A stretch of 39,082 bases of DNA from the IMG/VR virus record IMGVR_UViG_3300027653_000032, positions 1 through 39,082 of that record; one strand, 5' to 3'. A program made the position numbers and the translations under genes. This DNA comes from a virus. Lineage: Duplodnaviria > Caudoviricetes. Of the stretch, positions 3,685 to 36,798 are shown one piece after another (the first letter of the stretch is position 1; each line of letters opens with the position of its first letter). Under the pieces are notes generated by a model that ran no database searches, had not been told where the DNA came from, and was given only the letters and a program-made list of their open reading frames with translations.

Positions 3685-3686
3685 AT

Positions 3687-3818: not shown

Positions 3819-3882
3819 TAAATCGCCTCCAATAAGTCGTTAATCTTGTCCGCCTTTTCCCAAGCAAACTCGTCCCGCCCAT

Positions 3883-4170
3883 CTATTCGCCCTCCTTTTC
3901 ATTTATTCCTCCGCCGCCGTCAACAAACACCTGCATATAAGCGACCGCAATCGCCGCGCCTATCGCATGGGCCGCCTGCTCGTCCGTAAGTCCGGGATAA
4001 TCTCGCTTTAAAGAATCCGCGTTATATTCAACGCCATTTAAAGCGCCCGCTGGCGAATCCTGCCAAATATCGAATTTTATATCGAGCTTGGTATCTACGG
4101 CTAAATCTAGCATTTTGCTCGCAGTCGCTGGCGGATATTCCTCGAAAAATACCTCGAAACGTTTCGCCAT
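3883..4170 (-). CDS. hypothetical protein
   Basis: 95-aa ORF abutting upstream MTase stop, RBS AGGAGG. Confidence 0.65.
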   Translation of the reverse strand: MAKRFEVFFEEYPPATASKMLDLAVDTKLDIKFDIWQDSPAGALNGVEYNADSLKRDYPGLTDEQAAHAIGAAIAVAYMQVFVDGGGGINEKEGE

Positions 4171-4671
4171 TTACTCCGCCTCCTTTTCGATATAATTCTC
4201 CATCGCCGACAACCGCGGCATCCCTTCCGCCCGCGCTTGCCCGTCCTGCATATCCCAAACGACGACCGCGCTCGGAAACGGCGCGCTATTCTTGCCGTCG
4301 CCAAACCGCAGCCTGCCTTTGACGAGCCGTATCTCATCCGCCCGCATCACGTAATCGTGCCAATATCGCGTATCGGTACGGGCCGGAATAAGCGCCACCA
4401 CCTGCGCGCCTTTCCTCGATTCTTCGTAAGCTTTCGCAATCCAATCGCCGATAACTCGCCCATAAGGCGGATTCATAAATACGCGCTCGGGCGCCCAATC
4501 TTGCGCCAGCCCGTCGTCTGCCTCCGTAAAATAGCGGCGGCATTTTGCGTTGGTATCGTCCGCGCATGGATCTAGCGTAAAATCAAACTCGCTGTCCAAA
4601 CGCTGAAAGAACGAGTCAGGCGTTGCCCATTGGTCCGTTTTTGACGAGTAGTGTACGTCCATATTCTTCAA
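4171..4671 (-). CDS. phage N6-adenine DNA methyltransferase (phage Dam-like family)
   Basis: W.TP..FF..LD.EF.FTLDPCA, DGL.QDW, NPPY, PARTDT.YWH, GRL.F motifs. Confidence 0.9.
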   Translation of the reverse strand: MKNMDVHYSSKTDQWATPDSFFQRLDSEFDFTLDPCADDTNAKCRRYFTEADDGLAQDWAPERVFMNPPYGRVIGDWIAKAYEESRKGAQVVALIPARTDTRYWHDYVMRADEIRLVKGRLRFGDGKNSAPFPSAVVVWDMQDGQARAEGMPRLSAMENYIEKEAE

Positions 4672-4913
4672 TCTGTCGCCTCCTCTGCGTTCATGCCTTC
4701 GAGATATAGCTCGTTAATTTCGTCCGCATTATCTACGCTATTAATAGCCTCGCCGACGACTTCTAGCTCGTATTGAAAATCCGCAGCCTGTTCGGCCTGC
4801 TCGATTAACCATTCGAGGTCGCTGTCGCTGATTCTGTTCGGCAGGCCGTGCTTGATGGCGTAAGCATATTCCGCCTTAATGTCCGCAAGTCTTTCTATAT
4901 CTGATAAACTCAT
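4668..4913 (-). CDS. small phage protein of the 'WLIEQAE' family
   Basis: 81-aa ORF, SDLEWLIEQAEQA shared with ORFs at 11107 and 11741. Confidence 0.65.
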   Translation of the reverse strand: MSLSDIERLADIKAEYAYAIKHGLPNRISDSDLEWLIEQAEQAADFQYELEVVGEAINSVDNADEINELYLEGMNAEEATD

Positions 4914-4958
4914 AAAATCATTCCTTTCAAAGATATTTAAATTTCTTTTCTTTTTCGC

Positions 4959-4987
4959 TTGACTTTCGTTTAAAAATCGTTTATACT
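4959..4987 (+). promoter_or_regulatory. sigmaA promoter
   Basis: TTGACT(4959-64)-N17-TATACT(4982-87), AT-rich upstream. Confidence 0.8.
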
Positions 4988-5041
4988 TTTAAGTAGAAGG
5001 TCAGAGAGACGACCAAACAAATTATAAGGAGATTGATAAAA

Positions 5042-5299
5042 ATGACAGTAACAGCAATTAACTTTAAGGAAATGACCGCTAAAGAACTTCGCGAGGTAAC
5101 GTTAAACTATTCGGAGCTATCCCCGATGAGCAAGGCAATGCTTGACGGAGTTGATCGCGTCGTATTTAACGGCCAGTTCCTAGACGCTTATAAGGACGAT
5201 ACTCGCGTTTACCAGTTCGGATATACCGAATATATTGACGAGGAATACTTCGACGGCAACGTTAGCGGTTATGTACAGTACGGAATAGAATTAGAATAA
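5042..5299 (+). CDS. small acidic hypothetical protein (counter-oriented cassette)
   Basis: AGGAG RBS at 5027-31, ATG 5042, downstream of sigmaA promoter. Confidence 0.75.
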   Translation: MTVTAINFKEMTAKELREVTLNYSELSPMSKAMLDGVDRVVFNGQFLDAYKDDTRVYQFGYTEYIDEEYFDGNVSGYVQYGIELE

Positions 5300-5319
5300 G
5301 TAAAAGGAGACGATATAAT

Positions 5320-5529
5320 ATGAATTTAGCGAAAATGGGACGGATTGAATTTGTCGAAACATTACAAGCGCATGAGGCGCGAATGGTAAGAAACGGATGC
5401 GGCCGAGATTTTACGGTCAATCATACGAATAAATTGCTAGATGAAATTATAGCCGACGAAAGCCAGCCGGCAAATCTTCGTGAGAATGCCCGATTTTATA
5501 AGGCGGCAGCCGTTCGGATAAACGAATAA
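5320..5529 (+). CDS. hypothetical protein (counter-oriented cassette)
   Basis: AAAGGAG RBS; 69 aa; followed by terminator. Confidence 0.75.
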   Translation: MNLAKMGRIEFVETLQAHEARMVRNGCGRDFTVNHTNKLLDEIIADESQPANLRENARFYKAAAVRINE

Positions 5530-5537
5530 AACAAGCG

Positions 5538-5563
5538 AGGCGGCCAATACGGTCGTCTTTTTT
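5538..5563 (+). terminator. intrinsic terminator
   Basis: aggcggcc-aatac-ggtcgtct hairpin plus T run between convergent genes. Confidence 0.7.
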
Positions 5564-7127
5564 ATTCGCCTGCTAATAATTCCGCGCCATCTATCTCGCC
5601 AAATTCCTTCGCCCGCAATTCCGCCGCAAACTCTCGCGCCCCTTCATCGCTTGCCTGCTCGCCCTTGCTCGGTATCCATGCGAAATACTGGCCAGCGATA
5701 TAGTTAAGCTTATCTAGTAGGTCTTTCCGCTTGAACCATATATGAATATTTCCGTTAAGGAACATTCGAAATCTTAACGTATTATTTTCGTAAGAATTAT
5801 CGCCGATAAATTCGAAGTCGTCCTCTACCGTCGGATCGATTAATTGAAACGCCTTTATAAGGTCGCCCACGAAGTCGCCCAGCCTTGTATATCGCAAGCT
5901 CGACCATTCTCGGCCGAAGTCCCAGCTTTCGAAACCGCCTCGATTAATCGGAATAATAATCTTCTCGTTTATCCGGTAAGCGTCGTTAGTTTTCCATCCA
6001 TTATAATAGTGTATATTCGTCGAGTATTCGTTCATATGGTACGTCGTAATCCGCTCGAACATCCGTACGATTGACTCGATTAACATATCGTCCTTATTCG
6101 AATACATCGCCATAAGCAGCGTCTTTATATTCGCAAAATTGATTTCCATCGCATTGGCGGCGCTTAATTGTCTTTGCAATCGCTCGCGCCCGTCGCTCGT
6201 TAAATGCTTGCGGAAATCGTCCGTATCTAATATAAGCGCCCAATATTCACGCCTTAGGCGGTCAATCTCCGCCTTCAAGCTCTCGCCGGTGTAATCGGAT
6301 TGGTCTACGTAATTAAACGGTCCAGTAACGTCACCTTCGCGTTTATTAACCTCGCTAATATAGCTGAGGAATGACGCCTTTTTCATCTGCGCCTCGAACG
6401 CCTCTTTGATAAGCTCGCAAGCCCGTTCATATTCGACGACTAGTCGTTCAATATCGTTCATTTTTTCGGACAGCTCGCTCGCTTCGAGATGCGTTGATAA
6501 AGCCGTTTCCGTTTCGTTTAATGCCTCGCCATCGTTTGTCGCGTGTATTACAAGCGATTGATATAGTGTCTTGCCTCCGAAGTCTTGCGTGATATGCACG
6601 CGAATAATCGCTACCTCGACGTTTGTCTTGCGCTGACTATCTGAGCCAGCGAAAGCGCTTGATACGTATTCTATTTCCGCGTCCCAGCGCTCCAGCCGGC
6701 GCTTTAATTCCTTCCGCTTGTTCGAATACGGATTTGTCAACGTCTCTTTATTGATGATGGCGTATATCTGACAATCCGTGAGCTGGTTTTCCGCTATATC
6801 TAACGCCTTAGATAGATGATCGGCGTCAGCGCTAAAGGGCGGATTCATAATGATATAGTCGTATTCCTTGAAGGTTTCATACGTCAGAAAATCGTCCCAT
6901 ACGACGTTGTAGCCTGCGCCCCGCAACGTATTAACGAGGTCGGGGTCGTTTTCAATGGCATCTATATCGTAATAATCGCGTCGGCCCATACGTGCCTTTA
7001 TATACTCGATCATATCGCCCTTGCCGGCACTTGGTTCGAGGATCTTGCCGTCAAGTCTCGTACTATAACCGATTAGTCTGTCGAATAAAGCCTTTGGCGT
7101 CGGATAGAAATCCGGATTATTTAGCAT
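5562..7127 (-). CDS. N6-adenine methyltransferase with DUF4942-like C-terminal region
   Basis: DFYPTP, LEPSAGKG, DDFL, IIMNPPF motifs in the N-terminal third; helical C-terminus with GWKTN and F.NGN.H motifs. Confidence 0.8.
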   Translation of the reverse strand: MLNNPDFYPTPKALFDRLIGYSTRLDGKILEPSAGKGDMIEYIKARMGRRDYYDIDAIENDPDLVNTLRGAGYNVVWDDFLTYETFKEYDYIIMNPPFSADADHLSKALDIAENQLTDCQIYAIINKETLTNPYSNKRKELKRRLERWDAEIEYVSSAFAGSDSQRKTNVEVAIIRVHITQDFGGKTLYQSLVIHATNDGEALNETETALSTHLEASELSEKMNDIERLVVEYERACELIKEAFEAQMKKASFLSYISEVNKREGDVTGPFNYVDQSDYTGESLKAEIDRLRREYWALILDTDDFRKHLTSDGRERLQRQLSAANAMEINFANIKTLLMAMYSNKDDMLIESIVRMFERITTYHMNEYSTNIHYYNGWKTNDAYRINEKIIIPINRGGFESWDFGREWSSLRYTRLGDFVGDLIKAFQLIDPTVEDDFEFIGDNSYENNTLRFRMFLNGNIHIWFKRKDLLDKLNYIAGQYFAWIPSKGEQASDEGAREFAAELRAKEFGEIDGAELLAGE

Positions 7128-7185
7128 TTATATCGCCCACCTTTCGAATTATTTTAAATCCTTCTGACAAATAACATCATATCGC

Positions 7186-7214
7186 TTGACTTTCGTTTAA
7201 TACTCGCGTATAGT
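7186..7214 (+). promoter_or_regulatory. sigmaA promoter
   Basis: TTGACT(7186-91)-N17-TATAGT(7209-14); 19 bp identical to 4955-4973. Confidence 0.8.
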
Positions 7215-7247
7215 ATTATATAGAATGAAGCGAGAGGGAGATGTTAT

Positions 7248-7493
7248 ATGTTATCAAAATACGAAAATATTATTAAAGAGAACGGATTACAGGAAGCGAG
7301 CCTAAGTGAGTGGAAAGACGGACTAATCACTATTTATTACAAAAAGAATATGGCAGTCATTAACTCTGAAAAAGATTTAATTGAATTTTGTAGGAAATAT
7401 AAAAATTACGTGGCGCCTAAACCTATTCCGTTAACGCCTTTCCAAGAACAGGCCGAAAGAGTTACGATAAATACATGGAGAAGCGGGAAATAA
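7248..7493 (+). CDS. hypothetical protein (counter-oriented cassette)
   Basis: 81 aa, GGGAG RBS, AT-rich, own promoter and terminator. Confidence 0.75.
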   Translation: MLSKYENIIKENGLQEASLSEWKDGLITIYYKKNMAVINSEKDLIEFCRKYKNYVAPKPIPLTPFQEQAERVTINTWRSGK

Positions 7494-7508
7494 TCTCGCT
7501 TCTTTTTT
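7479..7508 (+). terminator. intrinsic terminator
   Basis: agaagcggga-aataa-tctcgcttct stem plus T run. Confidence 0.75.
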
Positions 7509-7528
7509 ATTTTGCAGGTATAAACCGC

Positions 7529-7557
7529 TTGACTCGCGCGTATACTACTTATATAAT
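7529..7557 (+). promoter_or_regulatory. sigmaA promoter
   Basis: TTGACT(7529-34)-N17-TATAAT(7552-57). Confidence 0.8.
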
Positions 7558-7591
7558 CGTTTTATAATCGCTTCCTAAGGGGGTTATTCCG

Positions 7592-7969
7592 ATGAAACAA
7601 TCTACCGCGATTCTTGACGGCTTCGAATTCGTGCCAGCCGTTGACGCGCCCGCCCTGACGCTCGACAAATATTATCGCCTGTATATCAACCGCTCGACGC
7701 GCCGTTTGCTCGGCGTCAGCCCGTATGACCGCCTCGCCGTCGCCTATCGCCCGGATCGAAGCGAGCTTGCTATCGTCAAATCCAACGCCAAACTCGGCGG
7801 CCAATTACAGGCCGAGGCGTTAGCGTCCGTCTTTGCCGTCGATAAGCGTTATTATCTGCACCTGCGCGTCATGGCCCGACTATATGCGATTAAGCCCGCT
7901 AAATTCGTCTATGACCGCGGCGCGTCTGACGGTACTATTTTCGTATTTAGGCGTCAAGATTCGCCTTAA
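7592..7969 (+). CDS. hypothetical basic protein
   Basis: 125 aa, AAGGGGG RBS, near-consensus promoter upstream; 3' end overlaps metK 3' end. Confidence 0.7.
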   Translation: MKQSTAILDGFEFVPAVDAPALTLDKYYRLYINRSTRRLLGVSPYDRLAVAYRPDRSELAIVKSNAKLGGQLQAEALASVFAVDKRYYLHLRVMARLYAIKPAKFVYDRGASDGTIFVFRRQDSP

Positions 7970-9041
7970 ATTCCGCCAGCCGCGGCGTCTGCTCCCACTC
8001 GAATTCAGCCCATCCGAAATGCCCGCCCGTTGCCGTCGCCGCGAATATAGGCTTATCGAGGCCTAGCTCGCGGATAATGCCCGCCGGCGTTAAATCGAAC
8101 GTCTTGCGGATTGCCCGCTCGATATTAGCGTCATGTTTACCGTCTGTATTAACGGTAATACTTACCGGCTCGGCGACGCCTATCGCATAAGCAAGCTGTA
8201 TCTCGCATTCATCGGTAGCGCCCGCCTCGACGATATGATTTGCGATATACCTCGCCATATATGCGGCTGAGCGGTCGACCTTGGTCGCATCTTTTCCGCT
8301 GAACGCTCCGCCTCCATGCCGCGCCCAACCCCCGTAAGTATCAACGATAATTTTTCGCCCAGTCAATCCGCTATCCGCCAGCGGCCCGCCTAGTACGAAA
8401 TTGCCCGCGGGATTAACCAAGATTCGCGGCGGTTTATTCTCGTCAATATATTCGTAAAGTTCCGGCCTAATAACGAAAGTTTCGACTATCGCCCGAATAT
8501 AATCGAGATCAATATCCGCGGAATGTCTGACTGACATTAGAACGGTATCGAGCCGAGGTTTGTCCCCGCTATAATCGACGGTTACTTGCGACTTTGCGTC
8601 GGCTTTTAATCCGTCTGTATGCGGGTAAATCGCTTCGTATCGCCTTATTAATCGATGCGCTAGTGCAATCGGCAAGGGCAAGCGTTCAGGCGTCTCAGTC
8701 GTCGAATATCCGAACATTAAGCCTTGATCGCCCGCGCCGCCGTCCGCTATGCCTGCCGCAATGTCGGGCGACTGCTCGACGAGGTTATTGCGGAATTTAG
8801 CCTGCGCCTCGTATTCCGGATCTATCTCGCGGATTGCCTGTCGGATGGTTTCCTCGTAATCAATTTCGGCCGTTGCCGTAATTTCTCCGCCAATGATTAT
8901 TTCGCCCGCGGTCAGAAAAGTCTCGCAAGCTACCCGCGCGGTTGAATCTTGCGCGAGCGCTGCGTCGAGTATTGTATCGCTGATTAGGTCGGCCATTTTG
9001 TCCGGATGGCCTTCGCTTACTGATTCGCTCGTGAAAAGCAT
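7947..9041 (-). CDS. metK: S-adenosylmethionine synthetase
   Basis: FTSESVSEGHPDK, GAGDQG, DAKSQVT, GLTGRKIIVDTYGG, GGGAFSGKD.TKVDRSAAY all intact. Confidence 0.97.
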   Translation of the reverse strand: MLFTSESVSEGHPDKMADLISDTILDAALAQDSTARVACETFLTAGEIIIGGEITATAEIDYEETIRQAIREIDPEYEAQAKFRNNLVEQSPDIAAGIADGGAGDQGLMFGYSTTETPERLPLPIALAHRLIRRYEAIYPHTDGLKADAKSQVTVDYSGDKPRLDTVLMSVRHSADIDLDYIRAIVETFVIRPELYEYIDENKPPRILVNPAGNFVLGGPLADSGLTGRKIIVDTYGGWARHGGGAFSGKDATKVDRSAAYMARYIANHIVEAGATDECEIQLAYAIGVAEPVSITVNTDGKHDANIERAIRKTFDLTPAGIIRELGLDKPIFAATATGGHFGWAEFEWEQTPRLAEFKANLDA

Positions 9042-9042
9042 A

Positions 9043-10500
9043 TCAATCGTCCGCCTTCGTAATAAGCGGAATTAATCGCTCGCCTATCGCTTCGATAACG
9101 CTAACCGTGACGGCATTGCCCGCTTGCTTATAGCGTTGACTGTCCGATATACCCGCTTGCTTGACAGCTTCATGCGTCTCGTCCGGGAATCCTTGAAGTC
9201 GCCAACATTCGAGCGGCGTTAATTTACGGATGCGATAGCGCGGTCGGACTTCTTGCTCTTCCGCAATCTTAGGCTCTCGATGGCCTCCGCCCATTGTCGT
9301 TAGAGTTGGCGGGATACCTTCCGTTGAGTACGTGCGTTTTATCGAGTCGTTTCCTTTTATGTCGACGTGACCGAGCATCTGCGGTTCGGCATAGACTATC
9401 GGCAATGAGGCTGTCTTAAAGCCTTCTGGACGCGTCGTCAACGTTGGGCATATGCCGTCTTTTAAATGTTGTCGATTGTAGGCTTGAATCATATCACCGT
9501 GGTTTTTCGCCTGTTCCGATTCATTGAATGTTTCGATTGCTTGCCGGCTCATACGCTCATTTGGATTCTTGGCTTCTAACTGTGACACCAACGTCGCCGT
9601 CTTTTCTTCGTCTAAATAATACTTCTCATCGACTTCCTTTTCGAGAATATCGCGTAATCTTGTCGTTACCTCGCCTTGTTCCGGCCAGTCGAAGTTGAAT
9701 ACGTTCGCCCATTCACCTATACGTCGCTTGCCTTTCGGAACAATCGTCTGCCCTGTCGTCGATTCTTCGCTGAACGGTTCGGCTTTTATCAAGTCCTCAC
9801 GGATAGCAACGATAAAGATTCGCTCGCGATTCTGCGGTACGCCGAAGTATTTCGAGTTTAGGACGTCGAAGTCTACCACGTAGCCGATTTCGTTTAATGT
9901 TTCGATCATCACGTCAAGCGTTCGCCCTTTATCGTGATTAACAAGTCCTTTTACGTTCTCCAAGAGCAACGCTTTCGGACGCTTTTCTTTCGCAATCCTA
10001 GCAATCTCGAAGAATAATGTGCCGCGCGTATCTTCGAAGCCTTTGCGTTTGCCCGCCACGCTGAAACTCTGGCAGGGAAAGCCACCGACAAGCAAATCGT
10101 GGTCTGGAACGTCCTTAGCGTCAATCTGCGTAATATCGCCCTCCGGCATATGTCCGTATAGTGTTTCGTAAGCCTGTGCTGCAAACTTATCAATCTCGGA
10201 TGCAAATACGCAAGTTCCTCCGAGCTTGTTTAGCGCTTGCTCAAATCCGCCTATACCACTGAATAAACTAACGTAAGTGAAATCATATTGCTCGTCTGCG
10301 CCGTATTGCTTAATTAATTCTGACAAATTATCGCTCTCCTTTTCGTTGTCATATATAATTACCTTAGTTTCCGTACCTCCCCCACCTCCCGCAGTTAATG
10401 TGGGCGAGATTCCATCAATTCTATAAACTCGCCTAATCGACTCATGACGTTTATCCCAAGGCCCACCACGCATTATAGCTCCTACTTCTAAATCGTACAT
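9043..10500 (-). CDS. C5-cytosine DNA methyltransferase, probably multispecific
   Basis: LFSGIGG (I), GFPCQ (IV), ENV (VI), QNRER (VIII), R.LTP.E..RLQGFP (IX), YKQAGNAV (X); repeated G..PTLT TRD-like units; second start TTG 10326 with AGGAG. Confidence 0.93.
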   Translation of the reverse strand: MYDLEVGAIMRGGPWDKRHESIRRVYRIDGISPTLTAGGGGGTETKVIIYDNEKESDNLSELIKQYGADEQYDFTYVSLFSGIGGFEQALNKLGGTCVFASEIDKFAAQAYETLYGHMPEGDITQIDAKDVPDHDLLVGGFPCQSFSVAGKRKGFEDTRGTLFFEIARIAKEKRPKALLLENVKGLVNHDKGRTLDVMIETLNEIGYVVDFDVLNSKYFGVPQNRERIFIVAIREDLIKAEPFSEESTTGQTIVPKGKRRIGEWANVFNFDWPEQGEVTTRLRDILEKEVDEKYYLDEEKTATLVSQLEAKNPNERMSRQAIETFNESEQAKNHGDMIQAYNRQHLKDGICPTLTTRPEGFKTASLPIVYAEPQMLGHVDIKGNDSIKRTYSTEGIPPTLTTMGGGHREPKIAEEQEVRPRYRIRKLTPLECWRLQGFPDETHEAVKQAGISDSQRYKQAGNAVTVSVIEAIGERLIPLITKADD

Positions 10501-10501
10501 A

Positions 10502-11110
10502 CTACCGCCCGCCTTTCGCTTTAATCTCGCTCATAATCTCGTCAACCTGTCTCTCTAAATCGTTTATATCGCCGTCATTTACAATCGTATAATCGACGTC
10601 AAATTTATCGACATATTGCTCGGTATCATGCGCTAAATCATCCTCGCTAAAGCTATCGCCCGCTTGCTTAGCTCGCTCTAGGCGCATTGTCTCGCTTGCC
10701 TCGACGCGTATAATAATAAAGCCGTTAGCGCGCGCCCATTTATACTCGTTAGGCTGGCGCAAGTCGTCGATAACAATGCCGGCTGTTGAGCGTCTATCCG
10801 CTTCAAAACGCGCCATCGCTTCCGCACGTCTTATCCATACTTGAGGATCAATCTCGCGCATCTTTTGTCCGATATCTTGTAGTAATCGGCGCGGCTTGCG
10901 ATATGATTCGACGTATTCGCCGCCGAACGGGCAAGGCCGTTTAATAGGCTCGTACATATGTTCGAAATAAGTATCGGCCAGTAAATTAATGCCGTCCGCG
11001 AATGATACCCGCTCGAAGTCGTATTTAAATTCAAGCTCGCGTGCTATTGTCGACTTGCCTGACCGCATCTTGCCCGTTAAAGCTATGAGCGGTATTCCGT
11101 AAGATTTCAC
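10502..11110 (-). CDS. deoxynucleoside monophosphate kinase-like P-loop protein
   Basis: GKMRSGKST Walker A, SFAD, R.LLQ.IG..MR, IDDLRQPNE. Confidence 0.85.
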   Translation of the reverse strand: MKSYGIPLIALTGKMRSGKSTIARELEFKYDFERVSFADGINLLADTYFEHMYEPIKRPCPFGGEYVESYRKPRRLLQDIGQKMREIDPQVWIRRAEAMARFEADRRSTAGIVIDDLRQPNEYKWARANGFIIIRVEASETMRLERAKQAGDSFSEDDLAHDTEQYVDKFDVDYTIVNDGDINDLERQVDEIMSEIKAKGGR

Positions 11111-11370
11111 TCTATCGCCTCCAATGCTTCGCGTGCAGTTCTACCTCTATCCCCATCTTGTATTGCGGGTTGAACAATCATTCCGAAATCTCTTTCCTTG
11201 TAGTTCCTTTCGTCTGCATAAAACTCCAACGCTTCCCGATAACGTTTGTTTTCTTCTTCCAACTCTTGCGCTCGTTCGGCTTGCTCGATGAGCCATTTAA
11301 TATCGCTTTGAGTGTACTCATCTAATGACTCCATTCTCGAATAGTATTGCTTTATCTCTTCTAAACTCAT
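11107..11370 (-). CDS. small phage protein (WLIEQAE / NKRYRE family)
   Basis: 87 aa, ATGA-coupled; SDIKWLIEQAE and EENKRYREALEFYAD. Confidence 0.75.
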   Translation of the reverse strand: MSLEEIKQYYSRMESLDEYTQSDIKWLIEQAERAQELEEENKRYREALEFYADERNYKERDFGMIVQPAIQDGDRGRTAREALEAIE

Positions 11371-11744
11371 TCCGAATCCTCCAATAACTCTAGATTTTCG
11401 TATATGTTTCCGACCACTTTCCCGTTGCGGATATATCCGCCGGTTATTACCATGCCTTCCGCATAATATCGCCCATTGTTTTTATCCCATTTGATTATCG
11501 AATTTCTTTTTGGTTGGTCAGATACTACGAATCCCACACTGAAATCATCGTGCTTAACAATATCGCCTTCATAAATCTCAAAACCGTTTTTGTCTTTTAG
11601 TCCTGTGTATTGCATCAGGATTGCATCTACTAATCTCATCTCTGGATCATCATTAACGTATACGTCACCATTTTCAGTAACGACAAAACCACTGATAAAT
11701 TGTTCATCCGACTCATCCCATGCCCTATATTTAATCTCTCTCAT
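11367..11744 (-). CDS. YopX family protein
   Basis: MREIKYRAWD, LMQYTGLKDKNG.EIYEGDIV, VVGNIYEN.ELL. Confidence 0.9.
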   Translation of the reverse strand: MREIKYRAWDESDEQFISGFVVTENGDVYVNDDPEMRLVDAILMQYTGLKDKNGFEIYEGDIVKHDDFSVGFVVSDQPKRNSIIKWDKNNGRYYAEGMVITGGYIRNGKVVGNIYENLELLEDSE

Positions 11745-12094
11745 TCCTCACCCTCCAAATAAATCAGACCTCTAATATGTCTGGCTAAGCCATAAATGTC
11801 CTCATCTGTTTCTCCTGCTTTTTCTAAAAGGTAATCAATCCTTTTTAGTAAATCGCGATAGCGTTTGTTTTTTCTGAATTCATCGATAAGCTCGTCGTTA
11901 ACTTGATTATTCTCTTTTGTGAGGATTAAATATCTCTTCCTTAATTCTTGAAATTTCTCGGCTTGTTCTTTTACATGTTCGACAAGCCATTCAAAATCTT
12001 CGTCTGGGATTGTCACCAACGGTTTAGGCGGTCTGGTTAATAATGCTGTCCTTTCCGCCTTGTATATGACTTTGTCTAATCTTTCTTTGCTCAT
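11741..12094 (-). CDS. small phage protein (NKRYR family)
   Basis: 117 aa; MSKERL, EDFEWLVE, KNKRYRDLL. Confidence 0.7.
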   Translation of the reverse strand: MSKERLDKVIYKAERTALLTRPPKPLVTIPDEDFEWLVEHVKEQAEKFQELRKRYLILTKENNQVNDELIDEFRKNKRYRDLLKRIDYLLEKAGETDEDIYGLARHIRGLIYLEGEE

Positions 12095-12279
12095 ATTCTA
12101 CCCGCTTTCCTCTCTTCCATTTCCCATTCGTACATACGTTGCTCCCATTCCATTTCTTCTTGCACCCTCATTTCGTGATGGTAACAACACTCTTCACAGC
12201 ATAATTCATTTCCTATTTTCTCCATGTTTTTTAGCTTCGTTTCTTTATTGCAAATTGCACATTTTTTTAACTCTCTCAT
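12091..12279 (-). CDS. small Cys-rich hypothetical protein
   Basis: 62 aa, CAIC...CCEECC, ATGA-coupled on both sides. Confidence 0.65.
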   Translation of the reverse strand: MRELKKCAICNKETKLKNMEKIGNELCCEECCYHHEMRVQEEMEWEQRMYEWEMEERKAGRI

Positions 12280-12500
12280 TCCTCATCCTCCAATGCTTTA
12301 TCAATAATACCTATCGCTGTATCTAATCCATCTAAATAACCATCCTCATATCCATAAGTGTTAGCGTTTCTGACGTAATTTTCTTTATATACTTGTTCTA
12401 TTATTTCTCGTGCTTCACGATAGCGTTTGTTTTGTTCTAATAACTCGGAAACATATTGCTTATTATCTTCTATCGACTTAATCCGGTCGTAATCGCTCAT
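12276..12500 (-). CDS. small phage protein (NKRYRE family)
   Basis: ATG 12500 behind AGGAGG; EQNKRYREA. Confidence 0.7.
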   Translation of the reverse strand: MSDYDRIKSIEDNKQYVSELLEQNKRYREAREIIEQVYKENYVRNANTYGYEDGYLDGLDTAIGIIDKALEDEE

Positions 12501-12511
12501 TGAATCACCTC

Positions 12512-13093
12512 CTATATCCATCTAATAACCGGCTCAGCGCCGGCTTTTCGCTTATCCCACACGAACCATGCGTAACATTGCGTAGTAGCCCACCGCTTGC
12601 CGTTTTCGTCCGTAGCCTGCCCGCCCCTCCACATCGGCTGACGATCGCTAAATACGTAAACATAAGACGGCGGATATGCGTCAAATAGCTCGCGCCTTTT
12701 CGCGCTTTCGAGCAACTGTATCCGCGCAAATATGACGACCTTCTCTCGCGCTAATTCCAACGCTCGCTCGATAAATTCTTTAGCCAGCGCGAAAGGCGGA
12801 TTCGTGATAACATTATCGAACTGTCTGCCGTAGTTATGCTCGAGAAAATCGATACCGCCCTCGCCATATCCTCGGTCGATTAAGTCGGTCGATATGATTT
12901 CGCTGTCCGGATAGTAGCGGCGCAATTCCTCGCTGATATGACCCTCGCCGCAAGCCGGCTCGAGAATGCTGCCGGATAATTCTACGCGGTCGAGAATGGC
13001 GCGGGTAGTTTCCGGCGGCGTGGCGTAATAATCGTTAGCGACGCGGCCTCTTGCGCCTGATGCTCCGGCTAAGTTTCGCCCTTTAATCGTCAT
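12512..13093 (-). CDS. small N6-adenine DNA methyltransferase-like protein
   Basis: DYYATP, LEPACGEG, IDFL, ITNPPF, YAWFVW motifs. Confidence 0.85.
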   Translation of the reverse strand: MTIKGRNLAGASGARGRVANDYYATPPETTRAILDRVELSGSILEPACGEGHISEELRRYYPDSEIISTDLIDRGYGEGGIDFLEHNYGRQFDNVITNPPFALAKEFIERALELAREKVVIFARIQLLESAKRRELFDAYPPSYVYVFSDRQPMWRGGQATDENGKRWATTQCYAWFVWDKRKAGAEPVIRWI

Positions 13094-19456: not shown

Positions 19457-20455
19457 TTATTCCGCCCCTTTCCGTAATTCCTCGATTTCCTCTAGCGCCC
19501 GCACGTAGCCGTTTATCTGCCATTGCGGTAGGCTAGAATACTTCGCCCGCTCGACTTGCTGGCGTAATTTCTTGACTTCTTCCTCCGATAAATCGCGGGC
19601 GCAAGCCTCTTTGAAATTATTAAACGTCCAGCCGTCAAGATTGAGCTTAGGCGGATTGTTTTCGCGAACCGCGCGGGTAACCTCGACGGCCTTGCTAAAT
19701 ACCTCGCGCTTATGCTCGTCTGTTATACGCGCACAGAACGCTCTAATGTCGGGCGTCTTTTCGTATTCTTCTTCCTTCATAAACCAGCGTTGCTTAGCGT
19801 AGTTAACGTACAGGATAACGTAATAATCTACGTCATACATATGAGCATAAGCGACTACTTGGCGGGCGTGCGATTGATCCGGCGCCCTCATCGTATGCAA
19901 GGACGTCTGTGCCGGCGTAGTCTGCTTGGATTTAATCTCGAGGCCTACGCGGATAATCTCGCCATCGTCCGTGATATATTCCATAATTCCGTCCGGCGCC
20001 CCGTAAAGGTAAAAGCGTTCGCCATCTTGCTCAACGAGTTTATTCGTTTTCGCAAACTCCTCGAACATCGGCGTCCCATCGCTATTACGTACAAATCTAA
20101 AGCGCGGCTTATTACCAGTTAATCGCTCGTAATTACGTTCAATCGCAAGCAATTCGCGCTGGATAAGGTCGCCGCCAAGTGTTCCTAGCTTTTGCCAGCG
20201 CCCTTGATGAGGTTGATTGCGTCGCTTATCCTTGACCTTATTGCCGTACTTGGCTTTGATGTAAAGCTCGCGAGGGCAAGCGCCTAATGCCGACGGGCTA
20301 AAATACAGATAATCTCGCTTAGGCCAAACTTGCGGTGGATTAGCGTACCATTGCGCTATTTGTGAGTCTAGCTCGTTATCCCACGTTTCGGGCAAGCTAA
20401 ACCAGTCGTCCAATAATGCGATTAAATCTCCTTCGATCTGCGTTGATAAGTCCAT
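19457..20455 (-). CDS. Cas4-like / PD-(D/E)XK exonuclease
   Basis: FSPS..G.CPRELY, G.PDG, GLEIKSK, H..Q...Y; ATG 20455 behind AAAGGAG. Confidence 0.75.
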   Translation of the reverse strand: MDLSTQIEGDLIALLDDWFSLPETWDNELDSQIAQWYANPPQVWPKRDYLYFSPSALGACPRELYIKAKYGNKVKDKRRNQPHQGRWQKLGTLGGDLIQRELLAIERNYERLTGNKPRFRFVRNSDGTPMFEEFAKTNKLVEQDGERFYLYGAPDGIMEYITDDGEIIRVGLEIKSKQTTPAQTSLHTMRAPDQSHARQVVAYAHMYDVDYYVILYVNYAKQRWFMKEEEYEKTPDIRAFCARITDEHKREVFSKAVEVTRAVRENNPPKLNLDGWTFNNFKEACARDLSEEEVKKLRQQVERAKYSSLPQWQINGYVRALEEIEELRKGAE

Positions 20456-20474
20456 TTTATCGTCTCCTTTTTGT

Positions 20475-22670
20475 TTATAGTCCCGGAACAGGGGTCCCAT
20501 TTAAATACTCTTCGGCGGTAATACTCTCGCCCCATCGTCGCTGTATCTCAATATCAGACGCATTATCTACGCCATCCAACAAATAGCTTTGCGTCATGAT
20601 ACGGTCAATTTCCGCTATGTCTTCCGCCGATAAATCATCGCCGGTATAAAGCACTATCTCGTCATGTATGGGCGCAAACCATTGCCAGCCGCGAGCCTTT
20701 ACGAGTTTATCAAGCTCAATCATCGTTACCTTAGTTTGTATCGCCGCCAATCCCTGTACCATCGCGTTAGGCGCCTGTCTCATAGCTTGGCTTATTGCGC
20801 TATTATGCTTACGGTCGTCCTCGTACTCATCGCTCCAATACTTGCCGTAAGGTATGCGCTTAGGTCGTTTGCGGGCGTCCGGCAATCGTCTCTTACGCGC
20901 CTTATCGCCAATCCATACGAAGCCGTTACGCTTGGCAAATGCCTGCGCCTTATCGATAAATGCGCCAATCTTTTTATACGTGTCAAAGAACGTCTGCCTA
21001 AACTCCTCGGCTTCGTCTACGCTTATACCAAGCGTCCTCGATAGTCCGAATTTAGATGCGCCGTACATGCTCGATAATAGTACGACCTTCATTTGCGACC
21101 TTTCGGGCGTATCCGATCCGTCAGGCAGCTTGTAGCACTCCTCGTAAGGCTTACCGAAAAATCGGCTTGCCAGCGTCGCATAAGCGTCAACTCCCCGAGC
21201 AAATGCGTCGAGCAGTACTTCTTCCTGCGATAGGCTTGCGATAATACGGACTTCCTGCGCGGCAAAGTCGGCATTGACGATATAGTGTCCCGGCGGCGCT
21301 ACGAACATCTTGCGGGCATCGCCCGACTGATTTTGTATATTAAACGATCCGCCCCCGCCCGAGCTAAACCTGCCCGTCTTTGCCCCGTTCTGATTAAGGC
21401 GCGTATGTATACGCCCGGTTTTCGGATTAATAAGCTGAGGCAAAGCGTCGTAGTACGTCGATAATAGCTTAGTAATCTCTCGGTACTCTAGCAGGTCGGC
21501 TATAACCGGAAACTCCTTGGCGAGTGGCTTTAGCGTATTTTTGGCGTTAGTATCCTTGATAGAGCGTCCAATATGCTCCTCGATAGCACCTTTTAACTGC
21601 GCCGGACTATTAAGGTTTATATCGCCCAAGTGCTTAACGACGTTGTCATGCGCTTTGCTTGCCTTTTTGCGTAACTCCTCGGCATATCGTTTAGCATGAT
21701 CAGTATCAATATCGTAGCCTCTAAGCTCAATATCGCTAACAATCGCCATTAACGGCATTTCGACGTTTAAGAAGTAGTCGAGTATATTGCCGTGCTTAGC
21801 GAGATGGTGTCGCTGGAACTTGTAAAGCCTGTACGTCAAATCGCCGTCTTTAGCGGCGTAAGCTAAGGCTGTCTCAAGGTCTATCTCGTTAAATCCGACT
21901 TGTCCGAATAGCTCGCCGTAGGTATATGAGTTATCTCGCAGGTACTTGGTAGCTAACGGCTTTAGAGCATAGCTTGGCTCATTTTCGTTGAGCAAGCGCA
22001 TAGCCTCTATCGTATCCCAATACAAGCCTTTTAGTTCGATGTCTAGGTCGTTTTTAAGCATTTGAATATCGAATTTAGCGTTATGCGCAATCTTTTTAAT
22101 CGTCTTATCTTCGTAAATGCTACGCAATTCCTCCGCCACATAACCTCGTTCTAATTGCGGTATGCTTGAATCATCGTGATCGGTAGGCACATAATAATGA
22201 TTATCGGCGCTTGTCGCTGATAATACGTGTCCTACGATTTTATCGGAATAAACGTCCGTGCCGGTCGTTTCGACGTCAAAAACGATTTTGTCTTCTTCAT
22301 TCAAATATTCTATAACTACCTCGAGTTCCTTTTTATTCGTAACTAAAACGTATTTATCCGGCATGTTATCGACAAGTTCTTTTAGTCTATTGCGTCGCTC
22401 TAATTCTTCTAATTCCGCCCATAGGCGCAAAGCCTCCGCCTTGCTAAAGCGCTTGCCCGCGCTTCCCGGCTCTCGTCCGATAACGCCGTTTTCCATAGCT
22501 TGTTTTACGGATTTTAGGCGGGTCTCGTCCGTCGGGCTGTTTTTCATATTAAATATCCGTATCCACGCTTCCTCGATTGTTTCCTTGCTTTGACGGCGCT
22601 TAGCCGCCGCTTTGCTCAGGCTCTTATCCTTGTTAGGGCGCGGATTGTTAAGCCTTATGTTTTTGCCCAT
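20475..22670 (-). CDS. polA: family A DNA polymerase with 3'-5' exonuclease domain
   Basis: FDVETTG, HNAKFD, YAAKD exo motifs; TGRFSS, ADFAAQEVR (A), R...K...L...YG (B), IHDE (C). Confidence 0.95.
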   Translation of the reverse strand: MGKNIRLNNPRPNKDKSLSKAAAKRRQSKETIEEAWIRIFNMKNSPTDETRLKSVKQAMENGVIGREPGSAGKRFSKAEALRLWAELEELERRNRLKELVDNMPDKYVLVTNKKELEVVIEYLNEEDKIVFDVETTGTDVYSDKIVGHVLSATSADNHYYVPTDHDDSSIPQLERGYVAEELRSIYEDKTIKKIAHNAKFDIQMLKNDLDIELKGLYWDTIEAMRLLNENEPSYALKPLATKYLRDNSYTYGELFGQVGFNEIDLETALAYAAKDGDLTYRLYKFQRHHLAKHGNILDYFLNVEMPLMAIVSDIELRGYDIDTDHAKRYAEELRKKASKAHDNVVKHLGDINLNSPAQLKGAIEEHIGRSIKDTNAKNTLKPLAKEFPVIADLLEYREITKLLSTYYDALPQLINPKTGRIHTRLNQNGAKTGRFSSGGGGSFNIQNQSGDARKMFVAPPGHYIVNADFAAQEVRIIASLSQEEVLLDAFARGVDAYATLASRFFGKPYEECYKLPDGSDTPERSQMKVVLLSSMYGASKFGLSRTLGISVDEAEEFRQTFFDTYKKIGAFIDKAQAFAKRNGFVWIGDKARKRRLPDARKRPKRIPYGKYWSDEYEDDRKHNSAISQAMRQAPNAMVQGLAAIQTKVTMIELDKLVKARGWQWFAPIHDEIVLYTGDDLSAEDIAEIDRIMTQSYLLDGVDNASDIEIQRRWGESITAEEYLNGTPVPGL

Positions 22671-34006: not shown

Positions 34007-34067
34007 CGGAGAGCGAGGGATTTGAACCCTCGAGACCACGGTAGTGGCCTACGCGAGTTCCAGTCGC
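34007..34067 (-). tRNA. 3' portion of tRNA-Ser(GGA), putative attP core (not a complete tRNA)
   Basis: GCGA-CTGGAAC-TCGC anticodon arm, long variable arm, GAGGG-TTCAAAT-CCCTC T arm, GCTCTCC-G acceptor strand; D arm and 5' acceptor strand absent. Confidence 0.85.
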
Positions 34068-34104: not shown

Positions 34105-34666
34105 GCGCTAAATTCGGGAAATCGAGACGGACGATTTAACGCTGGTCTACAAGATTACGATACAGCCTTGTTTTGCGTCATCGCCCTTATTATAATACGA
34201 CGGTAATTTAAGAAAGTCAATCGAAAAGGATAATTCGTTTATTTAGGCGATATCTGTCGCATATTTCCGTCAACTTTTTCGCTCGATATTCCGAGATGGT
34301 CGCCCATATAAGTTCGGGATTTCCGTTTAATAAATCGAAAATCCGTGCGTACTTTTTTATTTTGCCGGCATTTGTGCGCATGGTTTGACGATAATCTGCC
34401 TCGATAAATATCGGATTTTCCTCCCGCCAAAATACGGCGACAGCGATTAATTCGGTTTTTCCGCGGATTCTAACGGGTGTTTCATTCTGCCAAGACTTCG
34501 GCATATTTAACTTGATGTAGGCGTTATTACGTATGAGCGTATGATTTATCCTATCGCGGCTTAAATTGCCTCTATCGCTCGCTATTTGCTGTCTGCCCGC
34601 ATGATTGACGAAATAGACCTTTGCCTCGCGCCATATACTCGAAATAAAAAGAATTTATTAAATAGC

Positions 34667-34696
34667 TTGACAAGTAATGATAAGTCATGATAAGAT
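34667..34696 (+). promoter_or_regulatory. sigmaA promoter with T(A/C)ATGATA direct repeats in spacer
   Basis: TTGACA-N18-TAAGAT with TG; TAATGATA 34675 and TCATGATA 34685. Confidence 0.75.
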
Positions 34697-34730
34697 ATAT
34701 ATATAGTTAGAAAATAAAGGAGGAAACAAA

Positions 34731-35150
34731 ATGACAATAAGAGAATTTTTTAAGGTTTTAAAAAGGGAAGCAGAGGAATTATTAGAGGAAGGGTACATCG
34801 TAGGAATCCGATTTGAGGAGCTCGAAAGAAAAGCAGGCGACGTAATCACGGAAACAAGCCGACACAATCTCGACCGAGAGGACGAGCGAGACTTTCCCGA
34901 ATATGGCACGGAAGAATATTTCGAACTATTCGAATTTGATGGCGTATCCGCTTATGACGTCGAGAGTTTCGAAAGAGTAGTTACGCCTCCATTCGGAAAA
35001 GAAAATTTTCTCGAGCGAGATGCTCAAAGAGAATTTCTCGCAAGCAAGGCGTACATCATTTACGGGGACGATACCGCAAATGAGGACGATGTTTTAGACG
35101 AGGGCGAGATCGTGATGGTCGAGCCGACGGTTCATAAGCGAATATTTTAA
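34731..35150 (+). CDS. highly acidic hypothetical protein
   Basis: AAAGGAGG RBS; about a quarter of residues are D/E. Confidence 0.8.
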   Translation: MTIREFFKVLKREAEELLEEGYIVGIRFEELERKAGDVITETSRHNLDREDERDFPEYGTEEYFELFEFDGVSAYDVESFERVVTPPFGKENFLERDAQREFLASKAYIIYGDDTANEDDVLDEGEIVMVEPTVHKRIF

Positions 35151-35164
35151 AAGGAGGAAACGAT

Positions 35165-35314
35165 ATGAGCAAAAAAGACGTAGCAATCCAAGTCAAACTA
35201 ACGCGAGAGATGCGCGAGGAGTTCCAACGGGTAGCAGCCGACAATATGCAAAACCCGTCGGTGCTTATCCGATATTGGATCAAGAAATATATAGAAGAAA
35301 ATAAAGAAAAATAA
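35165..35314 (+). CDS. 49-aa ribbon-helix-helix DNA-binding protein (not in ORF track)
   Basis: AAAGGAGG RBS; VAIQVKL beta strand, TREMREEFQRVAADN helix, NPSVLIRYWIKKYIEE helix. Confidence 0.8.
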   Translation: MSKKDVAIQVKLTREMREEFQRVAADNMQNPSVLIRYWIKKYIEENKEK

Positions 35315-35321
35315 AAAAGGC

Positions 35322-35351
35322 TTGACATATCATGATGTATCATGATATACT
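35322..35351 (+). promoter_or_regulatory. sigmaA promoter containing a 22-bp palindromic operator
   Basis: TTGACA-N18-TATACT with TG; ATATCATGAT-gt-ATCATGATAT at 35327-48. Confidence 0.8.
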
Positions 35352-35400
35352 TTTAAGTAGAAGGTCAGAGAGATGGCCAACAAAAAAGGAGGAAGATTAA

Positions 35401-35613
35401 ATGGAAAGATTAACAGTAGTTGTACAGGATGATTTGCAGGCAATTAAGGCAGTGGAGGTAAGCAACAAGGAACAGGCAAAAGAGACAGCGGAAAGGCTAG
35501 CAAAGGAACATAACGACAAGCAAGTATTTATCGAGTACTTTAGAGAGTCAGACGGACAACGAGGATACATCAACAAAGACGGATTTGCACTAACAGGTAA
35601 AAGTTGGGCATAA
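35401..35613 (+). CDS. small hypothetical protein
   Basis: 70 aa, AAAGGAGG RBS. Confidence 0.8.
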   Translation: MERLTVVVQDDLQAIKAVEVSNKEQAKETAERLAKEHNDKQVFIEYFRESDGQRGYINKDGFALTGKSWA

Positions 35614-35719
35614 AAATAGGGCGGTTGATCGGACCGCCCCACCCTTTCCGTATCGGAAAAATTTTAAACTTAATTTCAATCCACTCACTTAATGGTGAGA
35701 CAAACCGAACGGAGTCGGT
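35612..35719 (-). ncRNA. putative crRNA-like small RNA
   Basis: TTGATT(35754-49)-N17-TATCTT(35731-26) with TG; 5' ACCGACUCC; internal CRISPR-like repeat; terminator hairpin 35619-39 plus U tract. Confidence 0.6.
35673..35701 (-). CRISPR. solitary type I-C-like CRISPR repeat (no array, no cas operon)
   Basis: GTCTCACCATTAAGTGAGTGGATTGAAAT = GT + CTCAC/GTGAG hairpin + TGGATTGAAAT handle typical of I-C repeats. Confidence 0.75.
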
Positions 35720-35768
35720 AAATAAAAGATAACATATCGACTCCTAAAAATCAATAGGAGGAAATAAA

Positions 35769-36188
35769 ATGATTTTAACTTATAACGATCGGCATGTTAG
35801 GGACATTAAATTTGATGAAAGTTTGAGCGTAGAGGAGGTTATCGAGAATATCGACTTAGAAGAAATTAGAGACGTCCTTGGTTTAGATAATTTAGATAAT
35901 AGTAAATTTAAGTTAATTGCTTTATCTAATAAAGAATGGGTTGGTAACAAGTACACGGTAAAAGTAAGAGTTAATGATATGAGTATATATAAAGGGCTTA
36001 AAAACTATGTTATTGATGCGGTATATAAAGAAAAACCTGACGTAATAGTGGGCGGTGGATTTCCGCAATTTACGGAACAAGTGATAGAAGCAATAGAAGA
36101 ACTTAAAAGTGAAGATGTTGATGAGTGGGTGGAAAGACGATTAAAAGAAAATGAGGATTTTATGAGGAGTAGATGGCCTTTCCAATAA
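35769..36188 (+). CDS. acidic hypothetical protein
   Basis: 139 aa, TAGGAGG RBS. Confidence 0.8.
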   Translation: MILTYNDRHVRDIKFDESLSVEEVIENIDLEEIRDVLGLDNLDNSKFKLIALSNKEWVGNKYTVKVRVNDMSIYKGLKNYVIDAVYKEKPDVIVGGGFPQFTEQVIEAIEELKSEDVDEWVERRLKENEDFMRSRWPFQ

Positions 36189-36273
36189 AAAAAGGCGAGT
36201 GATCAGCCTCGCCCCACCAACCCCAAACACCACGCCAAAAGGCGACCATGCAATTAAGCAATATGGAGTCGGT
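36187..36273 (-). ncRNA. second putative small RNA, paralogous ends
   Basis: TATAAT(36285-80), 5' ACCGACUCC at same 6-nt spacing, terminator 36194-213 plus U7; no clear -35. Confidence 0.5.
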
Positions 36274-36303
36274 AAATACATTATAATAAAAGGAGAATGT
36301 AAA

Positions 36304-36522
36304 ATGATTAAAGTAAAAAACGATTGGACATGGGTAGTAGAAAGAGTCAATCGGGAGTTGAACGGTAATACGGAGTTAGAGGAAAAGGTTTATCAGTACA
36401 TGGACGAAAAAAACATTGACTTAGATAGAGTTAAAGAAATGTATCAAGACGGAATAGAGCATGGTGAGGAAAACGGAAAGTATCTAACTTTTGAAAATTG
36501 GTTTAATGAATTTACTAATTAA
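36304..36522 (+). CDS. small acidic hypothetical protein
   Basis: ATG 36304 behind AAAGGAG; 72 aa. Confidence 0.75.
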   Translation: MIKVKNDWTWVVERVNRELNGNTELEEKVYQYMDEKNIDLDRVKEMYQDGIEHGEENGKYLTFENWFNEFTN

Positions 36523-36616
36523 TAAGATTTAAAAAATGAAACAGGGAGAGGGAGCAGGCGATAAAGCCTAGCTCCTAAAGTAAAAATTAGGAGGAAAAAG
36601 AAATGGGAGTGTTATT

Positions 36617-36781
36617 TTGAAAGAAGAGTTAAGAAAATCAAAAGAAAGGGAAAAACATTACAGAGAAGCCCTTAAAGAAATAAAATACATCTCCAGTCAC
36701 AGCAACAAAAAAGACGAAAGACTAGAGATGATCCAAAGAGTAACAACAGTTGCATTAAATACATTTAAAGAGCAGGCATAA
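36617..36781 (+). CDS. 54-aa hypothetical protein (not in ORF track)
   Basis: TTG start behind GGAG, overlapping stop of mini-ORF MGVLF (36603-20); contains EKHYREALKEI. Confidence 0.5.
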   Translation: MKEELRKSKEREKHYREALKEIKYISSHSNKKDERLEMIQRVTTVALNTFKEQA

Positions 36782-36798
36782 CAGCCCGCTCTTTTTTT
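36767..36798. terminator. intrinsic terminator between accessory locus and endolysin
   Basis: aaagagcaggc-ataaca-gcccgctcttt plus T run. Confidence 0.7.

Follow-up and report, generated by a model that had tools for sequence, protein, structure and literature searches.

The DNA analysed here is the IMG/VR virus record IMGVR_UViG_3300027653_000032 (Duplodnaviria; Caudoviricetes), a 39-kb record, 62% complete, whose 39,082 nucleotides are hereafter called the window, and the subject of this work is a small gene cassette at positions 34667-36794, a candidate counter-defence locus. The phage is temperate, and its host is likely a Bacillaceae species, since its DNA polymerase and integrase are closest to those of Sporosarcina and Bacillus phages (Lietuvens, KLEB27-1, phi18-2 and Mgbh1). 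Most genes of the window are on the minus strand, and the cassette is on the plus strand, opposite to the late genes, with a tRNA-Ser-type attP on one side and a convergent endolysin gene on the other, which confirms the location given in an earlier note on this DNA. In temperate phages of Listeria, anti-CRISPR (acr) loci sit between lysin and integrase. The earlier note had described six small plus-strand open reading frames (ORFs), several strongly acidic, with near-perfect ribosome-binding sites (RBSs) and two strong promoters. All six ORFs are present (Table 1), and both promoters are among the best sites of the region (10/12 at 34667 and 11/12 at 35322, both with TG); two minus-strand sites also reach 10/12, and the total number of promoter sites is at chance level (11 vs. 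11.1 ± 2.7). As for acidity, three ORFs have an isoelectric point (pI) below 5 (4.33, 4.66 and 4.50), but ORF3 is at 5.33 and ORF2 and ORF6 are basic, and as an argument for anti-CRISPR (Acr) function it fails its control, because 18 of the 41 small ORFs of the whole window have a pI <5. The strong AGGAGG ahead of ORF6 is real, but it serves a five-codon minigene (36603-36620).

Table 1. Features of the cassette and of its left flank (positions in the window)
Feature	Position	Strand	Basis
attP core, corresponding to the 3' part of tRNA-Ser	34008..34067 (about)	-	sequence; matches Mgbh1 attP region
Replic_Relax-like gene, 5'-truncated	34217..34655	-	PHROG 2190 positions 94-192 of 197, E 2e-17
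P1 with TCATGA-type 10-bp-spaced repeat (34675-34690), predicted RHH operator	34667..34696	+	promoter score, sequence
ORF1, 139 aa, predicted R-S-E-type ADP-ribosyltransferase-fold protein	34731..35150	+	family alignment, structure model
ORF2, 49-aa ribbon-helix-helix protein, predicted Aca-like autorepressor	35165..35314	+	Pfam, PHROGs, homologues
P2 with TCATGA-N4-TCATGA repeat (35330-35345)	35322..35351	+	promoter score, sequence
ORF3, 70 aa, orphan cargo	35401..35613	+	only 2 near-identical homologues; no family or PDB match
Two hairpins and U-tract ending antisense RNA 1	35612..35659	-	folding, sequence
Guide-like stretch, ~16 nt, AT-rich, 3' of the repeat	35657..35672	-	position as in host CreR-like guides
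Shortened 29-nt type I-C repeat, 5-bp stem, intact 11-nt handle	35673..35701	-	sequence, folding
Antisense RNA 1: leader, with its start predicted near 35719, and weak promoter (extended -10/-35)	35702..35754	-	sequence inspection; inferred; below promoter-scan threshold
ORF4, 139 aa, acidic orphan cargo	35769..36188	+	only 4 near-identical homologues; no family, PDB or atlas match
Antisense unit 2: -10 box, leader in common with unit 1, terminator	36187..36287	-	promoter scan, folding, sequence
ORF5, 72 aa, acidic four-helix cargo	36304..36522	+	PHROG 38299, E 7e-11
Hairpin, strong RBS and 5-codon minigene overlapping ORF6 start	36550..36620	+	sequence, folding, contigs
ORF6, 54 aa, basic, TTG start at 36617	36617..36781	+	ORF calls, contigs
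Hairpin between cassette and convergent endolysin	36767..36794	.	folding, sequence

The first gene, ORF1, probably encodes a protein with the ADP-ribosyltransferase (ART) fold, as judged from its family and its structure model. A profile search gathered 216 representatives of the family, which has no match in Pfam or NCBIfam, and in the alignment of 127 sequences, with fusions and fragments left out, R27 and E126 are present in 127/127, G71 is invariant, and S or C73 and D123 are each found in 125/127. In the model (pLDDT 95.6) R27 lies on strand 23-29, S/C73 on strand 72-76 and E126 on strand 126-129, successive strands in the ART order, and arginine-serine-glutamate (R-S-E) is the signature of the cholera-toxin clade (PMC8120803). 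Proteins with the ART fold, as classified from their titles, fill 29 of the 50 rows of an exhaustive structure search and 13 of its first 14; among them are Arr, 6b, PARPs, Scabin and AcrIF11, and the match to Arr has Z 4.5 and a root-mean-square deviation (rmsd) of 3.8 over 83 aligned residues. Foldseek against BFVD returned one uncharacterised phage protein, and the atlas no match. ORF1 looks like an enzyme instead of the DNA mimic that had been suggested for this locus, and it is more likely than not active as a catalyst. The same domain recurs in three long proteins (P0158, P0175 and P0162), two of which (623 and 650 aa) have it as their C-terminus and the third, of 1387 aa, internally; by eye the first two sizes are phage portals, and fusion to portals is typical of phage ARTs (PMC9503650). 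AcrIF11 is likewise a small phage ART-fold protein from an acr-type locus (PDB 6KYF, retrieved at Z 2.5), but it uses H-H-D residues and targets the type I-F protein Cas8f in Proteobacteria (PMC12421852; PMC8120803), whereas ORF1 conserves R, S/C and E, has no match to AcrIF11 at E ≤5 in the PDB sequence search, and has an I-C-linked distribution in Bacillota.

The predicted ribbon-helix-helix (RHH) regulator, ORF2, also announced by the earlier note, is weak by Pfam alone (E 0.03, below the cut-off) and is backed by PHROGs (CopG, 8e-4) and by homologues (31-52%) from one host family, of which 13 genomes among 246 have one; 10 of the 15 homologue loci returned were inspected, plus L240, which covers one more. 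The closest homologues retain the promoter-gene-RHH-promoter layout with matching operators. In L246 (52%) a promoter, a Gp111-like gene, the RHH gene, a second promoter and cargo converge on an endolysin, and both promoters have repeats of the TCATGA type. The promoter-Gp111-like gene-RHH-promoter-cargo order recurs in L240 (43%), whose cargo includes a 104-aa Cas8c C-terminal fragment and whose two promoters have one operator in common, which differs from that of the window, as does the recognition strand. Operators change with the sequence of the RHH strand among homologues in other prophages; the weaker homologues inspected, L252 and L255 (33-35%), are longer proteins in other contexts. 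In the window, three of the five TCATGA sites are in P1 and P2, as 10-bp-spaced pairs; among 2000 shuffles, 13 had at least three such sites. We infer that the RHH protein represses both promoters through these repeats. As in acr-aca loci, where aca stands for anti-CRISPR-associated, there is a small co-encoded, predicted DNA-binding regulator, and operator-like repeats lie over the promoters of the locus. An RHH Aca protein has been published: Aca14 is a repressor with repeats over promoters and predicted control of more than one operon (PMC13551039), but it belongs to other hosts, the cassette has direct 10-bp-spaced repeats of a palindromic hexamer, and the two are likened by description.

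The interleaved antisense units that had been proposed are two in number, on the opposite strand. Compared with shuffles, both have the better fold (z -3.8 and -3.5); each ends in a hairpin and a U-tract, and their predicted promoters are weak. The first, antisense RNA 1, has an extended -10, a poor -35 and an 18-nt leader ahead of what the earlier note called a CRISPR repeat, and the type I-C 11-nt 3' handle is indeed there (4 of 2000 shuffles); the repeat, the only intergenic copy in the window, is shortened and not intact, because it has 29 nt and is 27/32 and 25/32 identical to the two I-C-type repeats compared. At least half of the sampled words of the locus occur in each of 10 sequencing runs from 5 studies (compost, manure, soil and unspecified metagenomes), and the window itself may come from one of these runs. 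A one-letter variant at 35689, seen in X2, X3 and X8, gives a stem of 6 bp. Of the other contigs, one from X8 differs in the stem and has an identical handle and ~15 of the guide letters, and one from X1 departs from the guide after its first 8 letters. Since the handle and the guide start are kept while the stem or the later guide changes, selection on the guide seed is suggested. Processing of the RNA by the host Cas5c is quite likely.

Other I-C repeats were observed in viral DNA. Shortened phage-borne copies (30-31 nt, ATTA-type loop), followed by a T-rich stretch and a terminator, are located by the endolysin in L032 (5120-5210) and L098 (2501-2590), and the L032 guide has no exact match of protospacer adjacent motif (PAM) plus seed in its own host. 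In L004 (3001-3090), a Streptococcus-type phage-related element, the integrase is preceded upstream by an I-C repeat and a degenerate second one, with a spacer-like stretch after the first, and the viral contig L042 (3001-3055) has a solitary I-C repeat between a repressor gene and an Abi-like gene (labels by eye). Pattern searches were also run: the leader-plus-repeat pattern gave nine matches, eight apparently coding or chance and one the unrelated L042 repeat; the ATTA-loop pattern, in 120 viral loci of an estimated ~150, gave three matches whose stem had ≥5 bp, namely one real unit in two identical copies (L098, L141) and a third match that is likely chance, and in 44 genomes a single chance match; the repeat-plus-guide pattern gave the window's own record and two chance matches in the metagenome scan, and one coding match in the viral scan. 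In the RHH genes of L246, L249 and L260, the Trp-Ile-Glu codons spell the I-C handle, which is a source of false solitary-repeat calls in coding DNA.

The layout of antisense RNA 1 is that of a regulatory RNA of the host. In Bacillaceae-type genomes (L172-L238) a conserved CreR-like autoregulatory I-C RNA is found upstream of cas5c: in 23 of 66 host I-C loci an antisense shortened repeat (24-28 nt where the script could delimit it) lies within 520 nt upstream of cas5c and is followed by a short guide and a terminator, although the pattern missed a few visible units and none could be seen in loci where cas3 lies directly upstream. In 20 of the 23 units a TTC-flanked target of 11-18 nt is present in the same upstream region, each above all 200 shuffles and often with a mismatch at position 6, in agreement with the published I-C crRNA-like RNAs (crlRNAs; bioRxiv 10.1101/2024.12.27.630466). 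The phage unit has the same layout as these 23, outside a cas locus, and is built like a guide-bearing regulatory CRISPR RNA (crRNA) instead of the repeat sponge previously imagined. Among phage elements it resembles the Cracrs, single repeat-like units with an 11-nt handle, a short guide and a 3' hairpin, of which 219 candidates include I-C and Bacillota ones, I-C Cracrs being predicted in Bacillota (bioRxiv 10.1101/2024.10.29.618823); it differs from Cracrs and CreR in that no matching host CreR or promoter target was found and in being antisense inside a protein cassette. As a solitary intergenic repeat on a mobile element it also has one of the features that define an RNA anti-CRISPR (Racr), the others being ≥90% identity and coverage relative to a known CRISPR repeat and the sequestration of Cas proteins with a block of interference. 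RacrIC1, found with AcrIC5, is likewise a solitary I-C repeat in a phage counter-defence locus, but it is co-transcribed, 11 nt downstream of a known Acr (PMC10651486), whereas the present repeat is antisense, has 29 nt and is <90% identical to the two repeats compared. The published tables of Cracr candidates or Racrs could already contain antisense RNA 1.

The link with type I-C extends to the genomic neighbourhoods of both proteins. Homologues of ORF1 were found in 31 loci, 28 of them distinct, and seven of the 28 have a counter-defence-type neighbour: ArdC (L013, L018), a Csx16-like gene (L014, L021), a Cas8c fragment (L034), a 30-nt I-C solitary repeat (L032) and, in L024, a full-length Cas8c; the commonest neighbours are AP2/zinc-ribbon and Gp111 genes. 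In the viral contig L024 (284-4184) the ORF1 homologue also adjoins a distant paralogue (hhalign probability 92.8%), and no other cas gene was noticed among the ORFs of its 5.7 kb. Cas8c is present in 7 of the 9 genomes hosting ORF1 homologues, against 33/201 and 34/201 in two baseline samples (~16%; Fisher p ~1e-4), a comparison tempered by the fact that the nine genomes are non-independent and that the baseline order may not hold all nine. Guilt by association through the RHH gene, a search which the earlier note had proposed, leads in the same direction, as the homologue loci hold Cas8c C-terminal fragments, and so do homologues of the slot between attP and endolysin. Mgbh1 has a Cas8c-C-terminus/helix-turn-helix (HTH) gene at the same attP-endolysin position; such fusions are found in Mgbh1, the prophage loci L241 and L242, and L034, the first three by the endolysin and on the opposite strand. 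These Cas8c C-terminal (Cas11c-like) proteins (L003:6368-6826, L241:4792-5241, L242:4887-5336, L034:6406-6876 and L240:4920-5234), mostly fused to HTH_17 and located in lysin-flanking or RHH cassettes, are candidate type I-C counterparts of AcrIB4, a Cas8b C-terminal homologue and tested type I-B inhibitor (bioRxiv 10.1101/2023.06.24.545427). The parallel is that of a phage copy of a Cas8 C-terminal domain, with the Cas8c equivalents held by related prophages in the same slot or RHH family; the difference is that the window has no such gene and that the prophage proteins are of type I-C instead of I-B and candidates only. Neither phage Cas8c C-terminal HTH fusions nor Gp111 together with anti-CRISPRs were found described in the open-access literature.

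Taken as a whole, the region is reasonably probable to be a modular accessory cassette, likely a self-repressing early counter-defence locus against a host CRISPR-Cas of type I-C, with a predicted ART and a predicted crRNA-like antisense RNA. Each of its elements has a precedent (Racr, Cracr, AcrIF11, Aca14 and AcrIB4), and the cassette would work like an acr-aca locus with an RNA arm, fitting no single family. Upon DNA entry P1 and P2 would fire unrepressed, after which the RHH protein would bind the TCATGA repeats and damp both promoters. ORF1 would use NAD+ to modify a host defence protein, most likely a subunit of the I-C Cascade, as AcrIF11 does for I-F; that Cascade is its target is, taken alone, doubtful. 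The host Cas5c would cut the antisense RNA 3' of the shortened stem, Cascade would load the 11-nt handle with the ~16-nt guide, and the loaded RNA would compete with real crRNAs; if a TTC-flanked match exists in the host, the guide would silence a cas or other defence promoter, a role that is possible though somewhat short of an even chance. Because it is antisense and has its own promoter, the RNA could stay on in the lysogen while the RHH protein keeps the proteins low. ORF3-ORF6 would be exchangeable cargo of the same slot. Contig joints skip between the intergenic units (35643->36221 in X2, 36286->36572 in X1 and X10, and 35748->36280 in X8; short side 20-35 letters at 85% likeness), which are shared module borders even if the joined contigs come from other phages. 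An R-S-E ART-like family tied to I-C hosts and an RHH family with co-varying operators are new; in searches of open-access text a description of neither was found, nor an enzymatic Acr class for type I-C. A bolder version, in which ORF1 founds a widespread R-S-E ART family disabling the I-C Cascade, and a hijacked CreR-type guide RNA turns Cascade on the promoter of its own genes or of another defence, with both controlled by a new family of RHH Aca proteins whose operators co-vary with the recognition strand, is unlikely.

Several results weigh against the counter-defence reading. The earlier assignment to counter-defence against type I-C stands by association and not by family membership, in that neither the ORFs of the window nor their neighbours match a named Acr family in Pfam or NCBIfam (126 proteins compared in Pfam and 76 in NCBIfam), and ORF1, ORF3, ORF4 and ORF5 have no Acr match in the PDB. 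The best structural match of ORF1 is weak (Z 5.0, rmsd 6.8, 96 aligned), Foldseek against the PDB gives none at E ≤0.001, and 21 of the 28 ORF1 loci are without a recognisable counter-defence neighbour. The promoter of antisense RNA 1, whose expression is predicted, is weak, and the RNA may be dispensable or travel with ORF4, because an X2 contig joins across the repeat and ORF4. Repeat plus guide have a host copy in 0 of 246 genomes. The guide found no target: in the 66 cas loci the best match was 8 nt, at shuffle level; 69 Cas8c-positive genomes gave 33 matches, none near cas8c and fewer than the reversed control; 401 order-level genomes gave 19, none within 1.5 kb of Cas5c, Cas8c or other queried cas frames; and the phage itself has no TTC-flanked target (a 10-nt match near 32452 was rejected for lack of a PAM). 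Cracrs are defined by a match of at least nine PAM-proximal bases to the spacer of a host CreR or to a cas promoter, so that the unit cannot be placed in that class from the genomes searched, and elements without the 9-bp CreR match are regarded by the same authors as likely Racrs (bioRxiv 10.1101/2024.10.29.618823). The searches speak for a pure Racr, a repeat decoy that would tie up Cas5c and Cas7c in an aberrant complex, the stretch after the repeat having no DNA target; only ~11-16 nt are free ahead of the hairpin, and an I-C Racr next to AcrIC5 is published (PMC10651486). We nonetheless hold it doubtful that antisense RNA 1 is purely a decoy: its repeat is shortened like the host regulatory repeats and not near-identical to the 32-nt array repeats, and contigs that differ in the stem still share the start of the guide. 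The missing match lowers Cracr membership, not the mechanism; the true host is none of the genomes searched.

A serious competitor, whose probability lies a little below even, is a general early host-takeover or anti-defence cassette, in which ORF1 would modify a target outside CRISPR (RNA polymerase, nucleic acid, or a protein of a toxin-antitoxin or restriction system), CRISPR being the concern of the RNA alone. Among the R-S-E ARTs of phages, Alt and ModA have RNA polymerase and MazF as their targets (PMC8120803), the ORF1 neighbours include ArdC and many unrelated genes, two of the nine hosts are without Cas8c, and the portal-like fusions suggest a general injected effector; the enrichment of hosts for Cas8c and the three loci with I-C-specific neighbours (L024, L032 and L034) speak for a CRISPR target instead. 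Morons often adjoin lysis genes, and the cassette might be one, expressed in the lysogen against other phages, with ORF1 as an NAD-consuming or modifying toxin checked by the RHH protein and with the host Cascade supervising through the crRNA-like RNA. An ART adjoining an RHH gene does resemble a toxin-antitoxin pair, and host I-C crlRNAs control defence genes (bioRxiv 10.1101/2024.12.27.630466), but an RHH-like gene adjoins ORF1 in few of the 28 loci (L008, L010), the RHH family pairs with varied cargo, and the phage has no TTC- or TTT-flanked guide match longer than 6 nt, which makes this arrangement quite improbable. It is very improbable that the repeat is what is left of a host CreR taken up passively, and that the antisense units are no more than scars which recombination or termination left between cassettes: the joints between intergenic units in several runs and the weak antisense promoter would fit, but not the stem-restoring variant, the conserved guide start or the independent cases of L032 and L098, phage loci in which a shortened I-C repeat has its own terminator.

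The remaining cargo gave no functional lead (ORF3-ORF6) in family, PDB, atlas or fold searches. The helical model of ORF5 has no informative fold match, and its homologue in phage AP45 is fused to a predicted HTH, by the endolysin and adjoining a Gp111-like gene (both by eye). Antisense unit 2 has a perfect -10, no -35 and no CRISPR repeat. The stop of the minigene overlaps the TTG of ORF6 at 36617, and a frameshift or assembly error in ORF6 was ruled out because in X1 and X10 contigs a full RBS stands directly before the TTG, and the stretch 36550-36797 is covered without a gap, and with a single letter changed, by an X1 contig. On the left flank, contigs of X2, X8 and X10 continue as the tRNA 5' part at 34066-34067, and the Replic_Relax-like frame is open without a start ahead of the cassette, which abuts its lost 5' half. 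The best host match through attP was 87% among 401 genomes, and no host was identified; Rfam and ARAGORN found nothing in the window, and direct searches of viral contigs no relatives of the RHH protein and integrase. Elsewhere in the window, positions 1448-13093 (minus strand) hold at least six DNA methyltransferase-like genes in 12 kb, consistent with a heavy investment in anti-restriction. Within that region are two further small plus-strand cassettes (4958-5529 and 7186-7493), with no Pfam or NCBIfam match, whose promoters have a common TTGACTTTCGTTTAA start without TCATGA; the former has a ~39-nt leader in common with P2, and the two are likely a second early regulon. The replication module includes a PHROG 1706 'CRISPR/Cas system associated' gene (19457-20500, minus strand), which we take to be probably a Cas4-like phage nuclease.

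Type I-C is compact and in use for genome editing, and the locus offers three leads for it: a family of >200 diverse ART-fold proteins without annotation, a phage RNA copying the layout of a host Cas-regulating RNA, and an RHH marker gene leading to Cas8c-fragment cassettes in Bacillaceae prophages. If the counter-defence reading is true, an enzyme that inhibits I-C, or a guide scaffold of minimal size, would make a useful off-switch, and RNA-based anti-CRISPRs would be extended to the temperate phages of Gram-positive bacteria.

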